A DNA stretch of 64,000 bases from an uncultured Gammaproteobacteria bacterium (GCA_964604315.1 CAZRYK010000001.1:2459-66458), one strand, 5' to 3'. Positions 5,422 to 64,000 are shown, counted from the first letter of the stretch. The notes: generated by a model from the letters alone, not told the origin. Made by a program: numbers and translations.

Positions 5422-5579
5422 TGTGTGAGTGTGAGTAGTTCGCCCGCCTTTGCTAGAGCTTCGGCGAGGCAAGTATTTAGGGGTAAACTTTGCTCAAGAG
5501 GTTTTAAAAATGTTCTGCCTTGCGCTAAGTACAAAATACTAATTACGCATTACTCAAACTTTGCGTGAGCAAAGTTTAC
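5422..5579 (-). repeat. tRNA 3'-flank repeat element, copy C
   Basis: Reverse complement aligns along its length with the elements at 58987-59156 and 62553-62708. Begins CGTAAACTTTGCTCACGCAAAGTTTG directly after the tRNA-Cys 3' end and ends ACTCACACTCACACA. Confidence 0.7.
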
Positions 5580-5581
5580 GG

Positions 5582-18194: not shown

Positions 18195-18725
18195 TTAAGA
18201 ATCTTTTGGCGAATCCATTATGTCGTCGGACATAATTTCATCGAGTTTTTTATCTAATTCTTCAATCGTCGCCTTGCGTTCCGCGTCCGTTAACTCTTTA
18301 TACGCCTCCGGCTTAGTGACTTCCTTCACGCGTTCTTCCCGTTCCTTGCGTTTAACATCTTCTTGCGTTTGACGTCGCTTCATTTGCAATCTCTCGCGCA
18401 GAGCTTGTTCTTTTAAGCGTTGCTCTTCGCTTTTTTCTACGGTCACAATACAAAGATGACGCAATACGCGTGCATTATGACGAATTTCTTGATCGATCTT
18501 AGCCAATTTTTCTGGCTCCACGTCAAATTCCACCACAGTGTAGTATCCGTAGTGCAAACCTTTAATAGGGTACGCTAATCGACGCTTGCCAAAGCCCTCG
18601 GCGTTCACGGTTTTGACCGTGCCTTCTTCGGATTGAATAAGATTCGTGACTTCGCTTACTACCGCGGCGGAGTCTTCTTCGGACACATTGCCCGGTACCA
18701 ATAACAATAATTGATAGTGTTGCAT
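18195..18725 (-). CDS. rpsF: 30S ribosomal protein S6 with charged C-terminal extension
   Basis: '[10 protein letters not shown]...[11 protein letters not shown]'; classical rpsF-ssb-rpsR order. Confidence 0.85.
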
Positions 18726-18751
18726 AGTTGTCTACCCGTTGTAAGAGGTTA

Positions 18752-18912
18752 GAGCTCCTTTCAATAATCGCTTTCTTGCCATTTTGGATGATCGTGAGAG
18801 CGAAACGCGTAAAGAACGAGGAGGAATAGCGAAACTATTCTGACGAGTTCTGAATGCGTTGTAGCCTCATGAGCGCCAAAAGGGCTGAATCGGGATTATG
18901 GAAAGGAGCTCC
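18752..18912. repeat. IR-bounded conserved structured element, copy 1 (homologous to 58607-58772)
   Basis: Terminal IR AGAGCTCCTTTC / GAAAGGAGCTCC. Shared core GACGAGGAGGAATAG-hairpin-CTATT..GACGAGTTCTGAA.G.GTTG.AGGCC. Lies 26 nt upstream of the rpsF start. Confidence 0.5.
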
Positions 18913-19011
18913 TACAACATGGATTTAAAGAGTAGAGTACGTTTTTACCTCAAGGGGTACCCTACCAAAACTTACCTTGTATGTCAAGCGCGAAACTGAT
19001 AATATCCCTTT

Positions 19012-20220
19012 ATGACAAAAGAACTCTTTGTGATTTTTGGGCGGAATACCGAGCTGGCTTTGGCCGAATGGGAAGCCGGAATGCACCTGTTAGGGTTAAC
19101 ATGGAAAACTCGCGAATACGGCGGTCAGGTACTCTTGGGTTCGGTTTCCGGGGAAAAAAGTGATGCAGAAAAATGGCAACAGCAATATGGCGGAGTGATT
19201 AAGATTGGTGAAATTTTGGAAACCTTACCGGTTGTGGGAACGCGCGAAGAGACCATTCAACATTTTTTAACCGCAGAGCTGTTAACTGCCGTATTACCAA
19301 AAAGCGACCAACGCCAAAACGTGGGTTTAAGTTTTTATTCTTTGAACAAAAAATCTTCGCCGCAACGGTTAAGCACGCGTATTGTCCGTCATGCGTTGAA
19401 ACTGAAAAATGCCCTAAAAGACCAGGGTAGAAACATTCGCTTCGTGACATCGCACAATGCCGATCTGTCTTCGGTGATTTTGACGCAAGAAAAAGTGTTA
19501 GAACGCGGCGTGGAACTTAATTTTCTTTTAGGCGAAGATGACATTTTTGTTGGGCGCACATTAACGGTTCAAGATTTCAAAAGTTATAGTTTTCGTGATT
19601 ATGGCCGGCCGGCGCGCGATGCGTATTCCGGCATGTTACCCCCCAAGGTTGCGCAAATGATGGTCAATCTTTCGCAATGCCCATTAAACGGCACACTTTT
19701 AGACCCGTTTGTTGGCTCGGGCACGGTTTTGCAGGAAGCCATGCTGTTGGGGTATAAAAATCTGCGCGGATCGGATTTGTCTGAAGACGCTGTGGCAGAC
19801 ACCAATAAAAATCTCACGTGGCTTATGCAAGAGTACAAGGTGGATGCTGACGTGGATCTTTTTGTTTCGGATGTGGTGGATCTTGGCGAGCATATACCGC
19901 GCGGAAGTATTGACGCGATTGTGACAGAACCGTATTTAGGCCCGGCAGATAAGGGGCGCGTCAATGCAACGATTATTCAAAAAAATCTTACGAAGCTGGA
20001 ACATTTATACAAAGACGCTTTCCGCGTGTTAGCCCAGCTGCTAAAACCCCGCGGCACAATGGTAGTGGTGATTCCGTCGTTTGTTTTTCAGGGCCAGACT
20101 TTTCGCCTGCCGCTTGCGTCGCTTTTCCCGCCATCACTTTCTATTCAACAACAACTACCGTATTCCCGACCCAACCAATACGTGACGCGAACCATTGTGG
20201 TGGCCGAAAAAAAACGTTGA
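19012..20220 (+). CDS. Class I SAM-dependent RNA methyltransferase (UPF0020/THUMP-associated, likely m2G type)
   Basis: 'LLDPFVGSGTVLQEA' and 'VTEPYLGP' (DPPY-like) motifs; 402 aa. Confidence 0.6.
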   Translation: MTKELFVIFGRNTELALAEWEAGMHLLGLTWKTREYGGQVLLGSVSGEKSDAEKWQQQYGGVIKIGEILETLPVVGTREETIQHFLTAELLTAVLPKSDQRQNVGLSFYSLNKKSSPQRLSTRIVRHALKLKNALKDQGRNIRFVTSHNADLSSVILTQEKVLERGVELNFLLGEDDIFVGRTLTVQDFKSYSFRDYGRPARDAYSGMLPPKVAQMMVNLSQCPLNGTLLDPFVGSGTVLQEAMLLGYKNLRGSDLSEDAVADTNKNLTWLMQEYKVDADVDLFVSDVVDLGEHIPRGSIDAIVTEPYLGPADKGRVNATIIQKNLTKLEHLYKDAFRVLAQLLKPRGTMVVVIPSFVFQGQTFRLPLASLFPPSLSIQQQLPYSRPNQYVTRTIVVAEKKR

Positions 20221-39201: not shown

Positions 39202-39768
39202 TTATCCCTTACGCCTTATTTCCAGATCGTACAAAATTTCTTCCATGCGCTTAAGATTGCGCTTGGCGTCATCGAACTTCTGCCGCAACTTGCTGGTTAA
39301 ATTCATCTCTAACATCTGCGCCACCACTTCTTCCACGGTTTTGACACTCTCCCGAACATCGGTCTGGCCGCTCGACACCATTTTGATGGTATGGCGCACA
39401 ATTTCGCCGGTCATGTCTGCTAGACCGCCAAGATATTCTTCGTAAAAGACGTTCATGCCTTTAATGGCCGTAAACGGTTTCTTTTCTATGTGACGCAAAA
39501 ACATCGTAGCTTCGACAAATTCTTCCACCGCGGCGCGATAGCTTCCCTCAAACTCCAATTTGGGGTTTTTAGCAAACGATGTTTTGAGCGATGCTAATTT
39601 TCCCTGCGCCAACGCCAAATTCTTTTTGGCCTGTTGCTTATCGCCACGATGCAGATCAAAAACCGCCCGCTTGGACAATTGCAAAGCTTCAGACGATGTG
39701 CGCACAATGCGATTGCGTTCGCGGTAATAAGTTGCGTGCTCGGTTTTGAGTTTTTGGAAAAGCGTCAT
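39202..39768 (-). CDS. All-alpha hypothetical protein, possibly Translin-family
   Basis: 188 aa; C-terminal pattern 'GGLADMTGEIVRHTIK...EEILYDLEIR'. Weak assignment. Confidence 0.35.
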   Translation of the reverse strand: MTLFQKLKTEHATYYRERNRIVRTSSEALQLSKRAVFDLHRGDKQQAKKNLALAQGKLASLKTSFAKNPKLEFEGSYRAAVEEFVEATMFLRHIEKKPFTAIKGMNVFYEEYLGGLADMTGEIVRHTIKMVSSGQTDVRESVKTVEEVVAQMLEMNLTSKLRQKFDDAKRNLKRMEEILYDLEIRRKG

Positions 39769-43737: not shown

Positions 43738-43920
43738 TATAGACCTCACATTATGAAATAGGACTTAGAAATACAAAAACAAGATGAGATGCGACGGGTT
43801 GGAGCAAGAAAAAAGAGGAAGTGTAGCCATAGCTACATTGAGTGTTTTTTCTTGGGAAACCCGAGCAGATCGCTTGCTTTTTGTATTTATGGAGTACTCT
43901 TTCATAGGGTGAGGTCTATA
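43738..43920. mobile_element. MITE-like near-palindromic element with about 45-bp imperfect terminal inverted repeats, flanked by TA
   Basis: TATAGACCTCACATTATGAAATAGGACTTAGAAATACAAAAACAAG ... CTTGCTTTTTGTATTTATGGAGTACTCTTTCATAGGGTGAGGTCTATA. Central palindrome TGTAGCCATAGCTACA. A second copy starts at 63895. Confidence 0.5.
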
Positions 43921-43956: not shown

Positions 43957-43977
43957 GTTCGAAACTCGGTTTCGAAC
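43957..43977. repeat. Conserved hairpin GTTCGAAA-CTCGG-TTTCGAAC (family of three)
   Basis: Same stem and loop at 63334-63362 and 63816-63836; preceded here by the perfect hairpin TTGGCAAGAGC-TAA-GCTCTTGCCAA at 43923-43947. Confidence 0.45.
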
Positions 43978-43990
43978 AACAAAAAAACAG

Positions 43991-57839: not shown

Positions 57840-58520
57840 TTAGGGGAACGCAAGCCCATCCGGATTGGCAATGTGCAAACCCGCGCTTAAATCCTTTACC
57901 CCGACTTCTAATGTGTAGCCCAAATCGTAATAGCCGTAGACCTTATTTTTATCTGCCGATCCAATGGGGGTGTAGCTATATTCCTGCCCGCCGGGCGTGG
58001 GATTCTTAGGAATGTCTTTCATGTATTTCGGAGCTAACTCGTCCATTTTTTCCGGGTAACCTTTGCGATCATCATAAAACTTTTTCAATGCACTGCGTAG
58101 AGATTCAATTTCCTCAACGCGTTCGTTGTCGCGGTCTGTTGCTTTCGGCACATCTTCTTTGGCAACTTCCGGAACTTTTTCCACAGCGTCATCGGCTGTT
58201 TCGGCATTCGCTTCTTCGTCCACGGTGGCATTGTCATCTGTGGTTTCTGCAGGTGTTTCTTGGCCAGGCTGTTGCGTGGCTTGTTCGCCTAACACTTCGC
58301 CTTCATCGTATTGCGATTCATCATACGCAAATTCCGAATCGTCATTGGTGTTTGCAGTTTCGGTTTCATCGCCCGAAGGACGATTCACCGCAATGGCTAC
58401 CACTGCAATAACCACAACAGCTAAAACGGCAAGTCCTAACATTTTTTGCCGTTTATTTCCATCGTTCATGCCGGGTCTTTCGAACGCTGGACTTTTTCTT
58501 ACAACGTTATTGTCTGCCAT
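57840..58520 (-). CDS. Membrane-anchored protein with GspG/pseudopilin-like C-terminal domain but no prepilin signal
   Basis: 'LRSALKKFYDDRKGYPEKMDELAPKYMKDIPKNPTPGGQEYSY' resembles the pilin globular domain; acidic linker; no G/FTLIE motif. Confidence 0.4.
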   Translation of the reverse strand: MADNNVVRKSPAFERPGMNDGNKRQKMLGLAVLAVVVIAVVAIAVNRPSGDETETANTNDDSEFAYDESQYDEGEVLGEQATQQPGQETPAETTDDNATVDEEANAETADDAVEKVPEVAKEDVPKATDRDNERVEEIESLRSALKKFYDDRKGYPEKMDELAPKYMKDIPKNPTPGGQEYSYTPIGSADKNKVYGYYDLGYTLEVGVKDLSAGLHIANPDGLAFP

Positions 58521-58606: not shown

Positions 58607-58772
58607 TTTAGAGCTCATCTCAAAAATAGCTTTCAAGACATTTGAGATGCCATTTGAGCCGAAACACTTGAAGGACGAGGAGGAATAGTGGTACTATTGC
58701 GACGAGTTCTGAAAGTGTTGCAGGCCAAATGGGGCTAAAATGGCCGGAAGATTATTTTTGAGATGAGCTCTA
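58607..58772. repeat. IR-bounded conserved structured element, copy 2 (homologous to 18752-18912)
   Basis: 20-bp perfect terminal IR TTTAGAGCTCATCTCAAAAATA / TATTTTTGAGATGAGCTCTA. Same conserved core, with hairpin GAATAG-TGGTA-CTATTG. Confidence 0.5.
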
Positions 58773-58814: not shown

Positions 58815-58901
58815 GGGCAGGTGGTGTAACTGGTAGCCACGTAAGGTTTAGGACCTTATGCCTTTACCGGCGTGAGGGTTCAAATCCCTCCCTGCCCACC
58901 A
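58815..58901 (+). tRNA. tRNA-Leu (anticodon TAG), class II with long variable arm; CCA encoded
   Basis: Acceptor GGGCAGG/CCTGCCC, anticodon stem TAAGG/CCTTA with loop TTTAGGA, long variable arm, T arm GAGGG-TTCAAAT-CCCTC. Confidence 0.8.
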
Positions 58902-58912
58902 AGAATAAATCC

Positions 58913-58986
58913 GCGCGCTTAGCTCAGTTGGTTAGAGCGTTTGCTCGACACGCAAAAGGTCGGAAGTTCGAATCTTCCAGCGCGCA
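58913..58986 (+). tRNA. tRNA-Val (anticodon GAC), with unusual C at position 33
   Basis: Acceptor GCGCGCT/AGCGCGC, D arm GCTC..GAGC, anticodon stem TTTGC/GCAAA with loop TCGACAC, T arm GGAAG-TTCGAAT-CTTCC. Confidence 0.65.
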
Positions 58987-59156
58987 CGTAAATTTTGCTG
59001 ACGCAAAGTTTGGGTAATGAGTAATTAGTACTTTGTACTTAGCGCAAGGTAGGATATTCTCAAAATATCTTGAGCAAAGTTTACCCCTAAATACCCGCCC
59101 GCCACGCAAGCCGAGCATGCGAGGCGTTGCGGGCAGGCCAATTACTCACACTCACA
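58987..59156 (+). repeat. tRNA 3'-flank repeat element, copy V (includes GC-rich palindromic module 59094-59137)
   Basis: Starts CGTAAATTTTGCTGACGCAAAGTTTG right after the tRNA-Val discriminator; ends ACTCACACTCACACA, overlapping the last codons of vapC. Confidence 0.7.
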
Positions 59157-59538
59157 CAGTATAAATCTCAAGATCAGGGATCCCTTGAAAATCCCCCGTA
59201 TTTAATGTTGCCAGTTCTGCCTTATTAATGATCGCTGTTGCGGCAATACCCGCATCGACAAATTCTATGGGCCGCAAAAGATCACGCGCAATCTTCCCGG
59301 CGAATTCTGCGGTTTCAAATGTATAAGGAAGAATACGCAGTGGCGCAATCGTTGCAAGCAGATAATCTTCTTTCACCGAATCGCGTGTGCTTCTGCCTTC
59401 ATATAATTCTTGCACCGTGAGTAACGATATTGCTAAATTGGCTTTCGGCACGCGTTTTGCCATTTCCATAAGAAGCGTTGTCGCCGACCCACGCTGACGC
59501 AAATGATCAATAATGATATTCGTATCAAGAATTACCAT
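59152..59538 (-). CDS. vapC: PIN-domain toxin VapC
   Basis: 'MVILDTNIIIDHL'; 128 aa. Confidence 0.8.
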   Translation of the reverse strand: MVILDTNIIIDHLRQRGSATTLLMEMAKRVPKANLAISLLTVQELYEGRSTRDSVKEDYLLATIAPLRILPYTFETAEFAGKIARDLLRPIEFVDAGIAATAIINKAELATLNTGDFQGIPDLEIYTV

Positions 59539-59828
59539 ACTTTCTTTCGTTCTTTTGATGCGGCGAGCTCTTGAGCTTTTCGTTGTTTGTGCAACGATGC
59601 TTCGCTATCTCGCCCCCATGAGCCTCTGGTTTTTTCTAAGATTTTAAGATATGTATTCTCCTCGTCTACATCCCCCACCACTTGCTGAATGAGGGAAATA
59701 TAAATACCCTTGCCTTGAAGCACAATATTAAGTGGAGTGGCAGAATGGATGCCAAGCGTATCCCGCAACGATTTCGGGATCACTATTTGGCCTTTGGTGT
59801 TAGGAGTGGTAATTATTCCTATCTTCAT
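59532..59828 (-). CDS. vapB: AbrB/SpoVT-type antitoxin VapB
   Basis: 'MKIGIITTPNTKGQIVIPKSLRDTLGI'; overlaps vapC. Confidence 0.7.
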   Translation of the reverse strand: MKIGIITTPNTKGQIVIPKSLRDTLGIHSATPLNIVLQGKGIYISLIQQVVGDVDEENTYLKILEKTRGSWGRDSEASLHKQRKAQELAASKERKKVW

Positions 59829-62552: not shown

Positions 62553-62708
62553 ACAACACGTACCGTATGGTACGTGGTCCACGTAAACTTTGCTCACGCA
62601 AAGTTTGTGTAATGAGTCATTCGTAGTTGATACCTAGCGCAAGGTAGAATTTTCTTAAAATCTCTTGAGCAAAGTTTACCCCTAAATACAAACTACTCAC
62701 ACTCACAC
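62553..62708 (+). repeat. tRNA 3'-flank repeat element, copy A
   Basis: After a 28-nt hairpin (ACGTACC-GTAT-GGTACGT) that re-duplicates GGTCCA of the tRNA end, the sequence CGTAAACTTTGCTCACGCAAAGTTTG...ACTCACACTCACACA aligns with copies V and C. Confidence 0.7.
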
Positions 62709-63242: not shown

Positions 63243-63284
63243 CCCGCCCGCCACGCAAGCCGAGCTTGCGAGGCGTTGCGGGCA
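63243..63284. repeat. Isolated copy of the GC-rich palindromic module of the tRNA-flank repeat
   Basis: CCCGCCCGCCACGCAAGCCGAGCTTGCGAGGCGTTGCGGGCA matches 59094-59137 apart from one base; lies 60 nt after tRNA-Pro. Confidence 0.5.
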
Positions 63285-63435
63285 CGCGAATCCGGCATCC
63301 CCGACCAAGAGAGAAAAAAATGAGGCCAAGGGTGTATGTTCGAAACTCGGTTTTGGACATACGATCTGTGGACAGTTTTTTTGCTTAATCGCAAAAAATC
63401 TATTATACTTGAGCTCTCATCACTAACACTTTTTT

Positions 63436-63783: not shown

Positions 63784-63894
63784 ATTCAACAACCGCGAAC
63801 AGTTGCGATGATGAAGTTCGAAACTCGGTTTTGAACATACGGTTCAAGAGGTTTTTGTTATTGCGTTGTAGGTGTACCCTTCCCCAGACTATAC

Positions 63895-64000
63895 TATAGA
63901 CCTCACACTATGAAAGTGAACTTAGAAATACAAAAACAAGATGAGATGCGACGGGTTGGAGCAAGAAAAAATACGAAGTGTAGCCATAGCTACATTGAGT
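63895..64000. mobile_element. Second copy of the MITE-like element (truncated by the window end)
   Basis: TATAGACCTCACACTATGAAAGTGAACTTAGAAATACAAAAACAAGATGAGATGCGACGGGTTGGAGCAAGAAAAAA...GTGTAGCCATAGCTACATTGAGT aligns with 43738-43845; again preceded by TA. Confidence 0.45.

Follow-up and report, generated by a model that had tools for sequence, protein, structure and literature searches.

A probable MITE family with a conserved, strand-specific fold, dispersed in Patescibacteria-group genomes

In this study, we undertook a computational analysis of two homologous elements of 160 nt each that lie in a 64,000-nt stretch of DNA (the window), one of them between rpsF and a methyltransferase gene and the other between a 226-aa ORF and a pair of tRNA genes (Table 1). 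Copies 1 and 2 align along their full length, as the preliminary description had claimed, with a mean column identity of 80%; the ungapped comparison gave 71% identity across 111 nt. Both copies start with TAGAGCTC, and the 9-mer TTAGAGCTC matched only these two places in the window, the chance expectation being 0.24. Long bounding inverted repeats had also been reported and were found again, the arms being 36 nt (78% complementary) in copy 1 and 38 nt (82%) in copy 2, with 88 nt between arms. The distances to the neighbouring genes likewise stood, at 24–26 nt for the ATG of rpsF (18725) and 88 nt for the 226-aa ORF (58520), as did the identities of the two tRNAs beyond copy 2, whereas the label "pilin-like" that had been given to the 226-aa ORF was without Pfam support.

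Table 1. Positions of the two elements, their parts and their neighbours, counted from the first letter of the window. R1 is a covariance model of the 91-nt apical domain; L046 is a contig with a homologous rpsF.
Feature	Position	Strand	Basis or remark
Copy 1 body, 160 nt	18752..18911	+	alignment, inverted repeat, fold, model R1
Copy 1 left flanking TA	18750..18751	.	comparison with L046 empty site
Copy 1 right flanking TA	18913-18914		preceded by an extra C at 18912
Copy 1 left terminal inverted repeat, GAGCTCCTTTCAATAATCGC	18752..18771	+	pairs with 18892-18911
Copy 1 right terminal inverted repeat, GGGATTATGGAAAGGAGCTC	18892..18911	+	
Copy 1 conserved apical domain	18790..18879	+	covariance model R1, fold
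Copy 1 internal loop, GAGCGAAAC/GUUGUAGCC	inside apical domain 18790..18879	+	
Copy 1 tandem G·A core	18811-18824 (AAAGAACGAGGAGG) opposite 18842-18854 (GACGAGTTCTGAA)	+	
Copy 1 apical hairpin	18823-18841	+	
Copy 2 body, 160 nt	58611..58770	+	alignment, inverted repeat, fold, model R1
Copy 2 flanking TA	left 58609..58610, right 58771-58772	.	
Copy 2 conserved apical domain	58649..58738	+	fold, model R1
Copy 2 tandem G·A core	58670-58683 (GAAGGACGAGGAGG) opposite 58701-58713 (GACGAGTTCTGAA)	+	
rpsF, one neighbour of copy 1	18195-18725	minus	
Methyltransferase gene, other neighbour of copy 1	19012-20220	plus	
226-aa ORF, one neighbour of copy 2	57840-58520	minus	
tRNA-Leu/tRNA-Val, other neighbour of copy 2	58815-58987	plus	

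Several other features of the window were recorded. A repeat of ~110 nt (88% identical) lies directly 3' of three tRNA genes, at 58985-59094, 62580-62689 and 5468-5580 (reverse strand), and a GC-rich repeat of 49 nt (94% identical) follows two tRNA loci, at 59094-59142 and 63243-63291. Just downstream of tRNA-Leu/Val is a pair encoding a PIN-domain toxin and a MazE/AbrB-type antitoxin (59152-59828, minus strand). In addition, a protein of the Translin family, which to our knowledge is unusual in bacteria, is encoded at 39202-39768 on the minus strand (Pfam PF01997, E = 3e-23).

Modelled as RNA, the plus strand of each copy is predicted to fold into a single rod hairpin, at -83.1 kcal/mol for copy 1 (z = -9.7 versus shuffles) and -81.2 kcal/mol for copy 2 (z = -9.6), whereas the minus strands reach -62.2 and -60.2 kcal/mol, respectively, which is ~21 kcal/mol worse. 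The two copies have in common the apical stem GGAAUAG/CUAUUC, closed by the loop CGAAA in one and UGGUA in the other, and their outer arms differ in sequence while retaining their pairing; these points agree with what had been described. In every family member that was folded, the strand that carries the core was the better one, by 11–30 kcal/mol over its complement. Parameters for single-stranded DNA gave the same asymmetry (-41.4 versus -34.0 kcal/mol) and, because DNA and RNA energies are equally asymmetric, the folding energies do not prove that the folded molecule is RNA.

Relatives of the two copies were sought with a core pattern, ACGAGGAGG-N8-30-GACGAGTTCTGA, in a set with a single genome for each bacterial and archaeal species. 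The scan returned 33 loci, nine of which were chance matches within coding sequence. The other 24 are true copies, in which a hairpin joins both conserved halves, and they come from eight MAGs, six of them labelled as Patescibacteria-group or Saccharimonadales. Copies were found on nine contigs of Candidatus Falkowbacteria (representing at least five copies), four of Candidatus Kerfeldbacteria, two each of Parcubacteria GW2011_GWA2_47_26 and Bacterium CSMAG_488, and one each of Patescibacteria MAG143 and a member of the Saccharimonadales. The remaining hosts are binchicken_co144_210 (four contigs) and binchicken_co128_120 (one contig), deposited as "Gammaproteobacteria" and "Bdellovibrionales", respectively. 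For the five loci with such non-CPR labels (L017, L019, L024, L026 and L018), either the bins are mislabelled or the element has spread past the Patescibacteria. The element is therefore multicopy in some hosts, with the nine copy-bearing contigs of Falkowbacteria, four copies in each of two other genomes and two in the window, and its dispersal is one of several copies per genome across Patescibacteria/CPR lineages. A scan of metagenomes added a few further copy-bearing contigs.

Model R1 recovered all members that had been found by the pattern, together with three that fail it (L038 11131-11221, L038 9063-9154 and L016 7098-7189), and it gave 0 matches in 604 kb of unrelated viral DNA. Its scores depend strongly on the strand: 88.5 bits on the plus and 10.5 bits on the minus strand of copy 1, and 93.6 versus 20.2 bits for copy 2. 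The plasmid, phage, E. coli and viral collections held no matches to the element; 69 viral matches to a 14-base end pattern were rejected as chance, the model finding 0 there. At full length copy 2 is 85–86% identical to copies in Kerfeldbacteria and binchicken_co144_210 but shares only about 70–80% identity with copy 1, which lies in the same genome, a pattern of sequence relationships that would fit either old subfamilies or horizontal transfer. Some members depart from the common form. Two variants in the Parcubacteria genome, L027 3723-3882 and L038 9063-9154 (both minus strand), have a different apical hairpin while retaining the outer arms as well as two loops, GCUUUCGU...GCAGUAGAAA and GAGCGA...GCAGCC, indicating that the tip can be swapped or lost. 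Among the Kerfeldbacteria copies, one (L011 5727-5909, minus strand) has a palindromic insertion of 20 nt (CTGCCTGCCGGCAGGCAGGC-like) in its 3' arm and another (L023 7382-7540, plus strand) is truncated on its right side.

Covariation was assessed in 17 non-redundant aligned family members, with the RNAalifold consensus as the structure. Standard pairs occupy 94.9% of the aligned base-pair positions, and double changes were observed in 39 of the 51 consensus pairs. The covariation score was 0.638, compared to 0.209 for shuffles, none of which reached that value in 500, and it fell to at most 0.12 once the partners were slid by 1–3 columns. Inner helices covary as strongly as the terminal helix, 21 of the 32 inner pairs having double changes. 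The element is almost completely self-complementary, and its pairing has been maintained by compensatory changes. The covariation that had been proposed from two copies is therefore genuine; it extends across 17 members from many genomes and is strand-specific. The aligned members have 61 G·U but 12 A·C wobbles, and the unpaired positions of the core-carrying strand are purine-rich. Since the G·U excess and the purine-rich G·A loops belong to one strand, selection appears to act on a single-stranded form, which is probably RNA; by analogy with the Correia, ERIC and bcr1 repeats, RNA would be the likeliest form.

The tip of the fold reads 5'-GA-AGAAC-GA-G-GA-GG...CY-GA-C-GA-GUUCU-GA-3' and as modelled can form tandem sheared G·A pairs in three 2x2 loops. 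Two of these loops are separated by one G-C pair in the predicted fold, and beneath the tip the aligned members have a further loop, GAGC(C)GAAA / UUG(C/U)AGCC. The invariance of the core has to be read with the search in mind, as 21 core bases served as bait and the invariance is partly by construction. The same ascertainment effect contributes to the interior being more conserved than the terminal repeats, which vary by lineage. One member that was found by the model and not the bait, L038 11095-11252, has kept the two upper G·A loops and shows AAC/GUU replaced by AAU/AUU, a compensatory change, whereas the tips of L016 7098-7189, L038 9063-9154 and L027 3723-3882 are degenerate or swapped.

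A second family of rod hairpins is present in the window at 43739-43920 (plus strand, 182 nt, TATAGACCTCACATTATG...CATAGGGTGAGGTCTATA), immediately upstream of ruvA; its predicted folding energies are -93.6 kcal/mol (plus strand) and -79.3 kcal/mol (minus strand). A partial copy that is 94% identical (63895-64000) runs off the end of the window. The ends of this family resemble the TAGACCT... ends of some subfamilies of the first, and its tip (GAGGAAG-stem-UUGAG) resembles that of the L038 variant. Kinship between the two families is nonetheless unproven, as the R1 score was 20.9 bits, no better than that of the reverse strand of copy 2. Near the second family the palindrome GTTCGAAACTCGGTTT(C/T)GAAC occurs at 43957-43982, 63338-63363 and 63816-63841.

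On the minus strand, the proposed promoter TTGACA-17-TAGGGT beyond copy 1 is present at 18988-18961; its second hexamer is a poor one, however, and the site does not pass a consensus scan. On the plus strand, the -35-like hexamer lies 16 nt before TAGAGC in copy 1 and 14 nt before it in copy 2, rather than the 17 nt that had been stated; TAGAGC itself is without the conserved final T, so that the proposed promoters of this strand are weak and their spacers uneven. The 226-aa ORF has a strong promoter-like site of its own, TTGACA-17-TATAGT (58578-58550), between the ORF and copy 2. Overall, consensus scans detected no promoter conserved in or beside the element. A small ORF following the core GGAGG was discounted, as it is not conserved between copies 1 and 2. 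With Rfam 15 at gathering thresholds the whole window yielded six tRNAs only, and the ribosomal-protein leaders and 6S RNA that had been suggested as candidates had no match even at E up to 10. With relaxed thresholds, four family members gave sub-threshold generic hairpins only (plant miRNA precursors and, once, Clostridiales-1). The latter, RF01699, is the best Rfam near-match and resembles the element in being a long hairpin with purine-rich internal loops. However, its score in copy 1 was 18.9 bits, where the gathering score is 48, and it did not match copy 2 or other family members, and hence the element is not one of its members. The 6S RNA was also rejected on the grounds that the element is multicopy and mobile, and that its predicted rod has small internal loops only.

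Evidence on the origin of copy 1 came from rpsF. The RpsF of the window was found on three short contigs, all having the same 287-nt spacer, and its only close homologue among 5.8 billion proteins (P0001, 93% identical) is encoded on contig L046. Upstream of rpsF the window reads ...GTCTACCCGTTGTAAGAGGT-TA-(160-nt element)-C-TA-CAACATGGATTTAAAGAGTAGA..., whereas L046 reads ...GTCTACCCGTTGTATGAGGCC-TA-CAACTTGGATATTTAAGAGTAGA..., the element being precisely absent. At the junction, ...GAGGT-TA-(element)-C-TA-CAAC... in the window corresponds to ...GAGGCC-TA-CAAC... in L046, with a single TA at the empty site, although the exact bases there are blurred by strain divergence and this is one empty-site case. 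It indicates that copy 1 arose by insertion at TA or, less likely, that L046 has undergone a precise loss. For copy 2 an empty site was sought without success, as the only other contig with the neighbour protein (L047, a Logan contig of SRR12113422) stops at the apex of the element's hairpin, at about position 58674 of the window. Its ending there suggests that the palindrome breaks short-read assembly.

The family as a whole has the features of a mobile element. Full copies measure 157–163 nt in every lineage, below the size of about 400 bp under which MITEs fall, the aligned copies contain no visible ORF, and the terminal inverted repeats are ~20 nt. Over the first 14 terminal nucleotides, 16 of the 20 full copies have 13–14 complementary positions and the other four have 12. 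TA was found on both flanks at 14 of 20 sites, and AA or AT/TT was seen as the flanks of a smaller number of sites. As TA is palindromic, the informative flanks are AA/AA (L024 and L012), TAT/TAT (L030) and ATA/ATA (L038), and because these are direct and not inverted they point to a short target duplication, which the AA/AA cases indicate to be of 2 bp. Identity within genomes is high, at 95–100% in Falkowbacteria, 97.5–99% in binchicken_co144_210 and 97.5% between Kerfeldbacteria L015 and L028. A contig end lies within ~50 nt of eight of the nine Falkowbacteria copies, and contig ends also adjoin two of the four in binchicken_co144_210; such placement is the mark of a repeat that breaks assemblies. 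The neighbours of the copies are unrelated housekeeping genes. Based on crude ORF calls, the element and its 5' neighbour lie on opposite strands at 13 sites and share a strand at 8, whereas for the 3' neighbour these numbers are 12 and 8, with no bias towards read-through of the better-folding strand. An all-against-all BLASTP of the flanking ORFs revealed no linked gene; only YidC and ABC ATPases recur. In two genomes yidC is ~20 nt from a copy (L023 6572-7363 and L027 2942-3703, the latter beside a variant copy), which may be a coincidence or a favoured target region.

Because the elements are of the right size, end in inverted repeats, are flanked by a short target duplication, occur in several dispersed copies and can be present in one relative but absent from another, the best explanation is that they are a MITE family (as defined in PMC3184786) of the non-autonomous transposon type, to which we assign a probability of roughly 0.72. 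The preliminary description had preferred a functional RNA over a MITE, and part of that view was fair, namely that a single-stranded fold is under selection, but its denial of a MITE fails. Many near-identical copies at scattered positions, which it had named as evidence against its own view, do exist, in other genomes. What is unusual for a MITE is that the family occurs in several candidate phyla, is constant in length and has an interior conserved over its ends, the last being the reverse of a simple MITE.

A duplication of 2 bp at TA points to a transposase of the IS630/Tc1-mariner type. On the sole basis of that duplication and the inverted repeats, the elements would be moved in trans by such a TA-targeting DDE transposase. 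A parent transposon or transposase gene with the same ends was found neither among 30 ORFs scanned in the 64-kb window, nor within about 8 kb around each copy, nor in the plasmid, phage, E. coli and viral collections, and a search of all loci for extra solo ends of such a parent yielded only the variant copy L027 3723-3882. Once transcribed, an insertion would fold into a rod of ~70 bp of RNA, whose tip would carry the three tandem sheared G·A loops (5'-GA-AGAAC-GA-G-GA-GG / CY-GA-C-GA-GUUCU-GA-3'). By analogy with the action of RNase III on Correia and of RNase E on ERIC elements, the rod would probably be a platform for protein binding or RNase processing that alters the stability or processing of the neighbours' transcripts. 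In the case of copy 1, rpsF mRNA probably reads through the minus strand of the element from a promoter beyond it, since the element is only 24 nt from the ATG.

A more far-reaching version is a tentative possibility, in which the family would be a CPR-wide mobile structured RNA that has been transferred horizontally between candidate phyla, with an invariant apical platform as its selected function. It is suggested by copy 2 being closer to the copies of Kerfeldbacteria and binchicken_co144_210 than to copy 1. In the modelled fold GYA/GA bulged-G-like loops could lie beneath the three tandem sheared G·A loops of this platform, which could serve as a protein decoy or binding site, or help the element to transpose as an RNA cofactor.

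It is unlikely, in our view, that the element is instead a mobile RNA gene, meaning a trans-acting or protein-sequestering small RNA of ~160 nt that has been preserved as such, with the MITE-like spread describing only its distribution. The strand-specific conservation with G·U pairs at fixed positions, the constant length across candidate phyla, the conservation of the interior above the termini, and the G·A loops and compensatory change kept in the model-found L038 11095-11252 are all consistent with such a gene. However, the element contains no conserved promoter or terminator, its orientation relative to neighbours is mixed, copy 1 is missing in a close relative, and the decayed copies L016 7098-7189, L038 9063-9154 and L027 3723-3882 have an apical domain that has degenerated or been replaced; in addition, the conservation of the core is partly an ascertainment effect.

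We regard as improbable a single-stranded-DNA hairpin element, either of the HUH/Y1 kind (REPIN/RAYT, IS200/IS605-like) or used by a recombinase that acts on a folded strand, in which the fold would be a DNA feature. The strand asymmetry is the same under DNA energy parameters, the entire element is one hairpin, and sheared tandem G·A pairs in a 5'-C-GA-G context are also stable in DNA. HUH elements, however, make no target duplication, whereas the AA/AA direct repeats of two copies and the TA flanks fit a staggered-cut DDE insertion, the terminal inverted repeats are true ones rather than subterminal hairpins, and no Y1/RAYT-like gene recurs beside the copies. A derivative of REPIN/RAYT or IS200/IS605 was rejected for the same reasons. 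Slightly less credible again is a purely selfish palindrome without a single-stranded role, whose pairing would result from binding of both ends by a shared transposase or from gene conversion between the arms. Many MITEs consist of two inverted ends and hence form long hairpins (PMC3184786), and helix 1 of this family is the terminal repeat itself. Against this, inner helices covary equally (21 of 32 inner pairs double-changed), and the 5:1 excess of G·U over A·C and the purine-only loops are strand-specific features that would be invisible to duplex DNA. Finally, the proposal that copy 1 is a conserved cis-regulatory 5' leader RNA of rpsF-ssb-rpsR, and copy 2 likewise of its neighbour, can practically be dismissed: copy 1 does lie 24 nt from the ATG with a weak promoter-like site beyond it (18988-18961), but the empty site in the relative with 93% identical RpsF contradicts it by showing that copy 1 is not a conserved leader of that operon, other copies adjoin unrelated genes, the conserved strand is antisense to rpsF, Rfam has no ribosomal-protein leader match, and copy 2 is upstream of its neighbour's own promoter-like site.

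As a MITE family, these elements have counterparts in other bacteria. The Correia (NEMIS) elements of Neisseria are also MITEs, of ~100–160 bp, with terminal inverted repeats, a TA target duplication and differences in presence/absence between strains; their consensus is unrelated in sequence to this element. They differ in having IHF sites and outward promoters, whereas no conserved promoter was seen here, and in the present family conservation is far higher in the interior than at the ends. Hairpins in Correia transcripts are cleaved by RNase III (PMC3184786, PMC10969869), and mRNAs containing MITEs are processed by RNase III and RNase E (PMC10969869). The ERIC (IRU) elements of Enterobacteriaceae (~127 bp) are comparable in being intergenic, imperfect long palindromes with TA flanks that occur in many genera. 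They are MITEs that form an RNA hairpin when co-transcribed (PMC3184786) and affect mRNA decay through RNase E, for which they have an exposed site (PMC10969869). The present element differs in its length of ~160 nt, its CPR hosts and its apical domain of triple tandem G·A, and blastn against 5,426 complete genomes of E. coli, a carrier of ERIC, returned no match to it. A further counterpart is bcr1, of the group A bcr repeats in the Bacillus cereus group, which is mobile, ~155 bp long and unevenly distributed among strains, and whose RNA fold is maintained through compensatory changes (PMC3184786). It is distinguished by direct repeats of 5 bp, a two-stem, cruciform-like fold and its restriction to one species group, whereas this family has 2-bp TA flanks, a single rod and hosts in several candidate phyla. 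REPINs are similar as dispersed hairpin repeats with arms that evolve while their pairing is kept, but they lack a target duplication and such terminal repeats and need a linked Y1 transposase.

The literature that was searched describes no MITE or such repeat in Patescibacteria, Parcubacteria or Saccharibacteria, whose genomes (those of CPR/Patescibacteria) are ~1 Mb, and almost no RNA biology is known from these hosts. A family that several candidate phyla have in common, and that is still active in some of their genomes, would explain breaks in their assemblies and may be a marker of horizontal exchange among CPR episymbionts. It also warns annotators that hairpins of this kind should not be taken for small RNAs or the leaders of operons. 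Both the strand-specific conservation and the triple G·A tip are uncommon among MITEs, and together they make the family a testable candidate for an RNA–protein interaction in these organisms.
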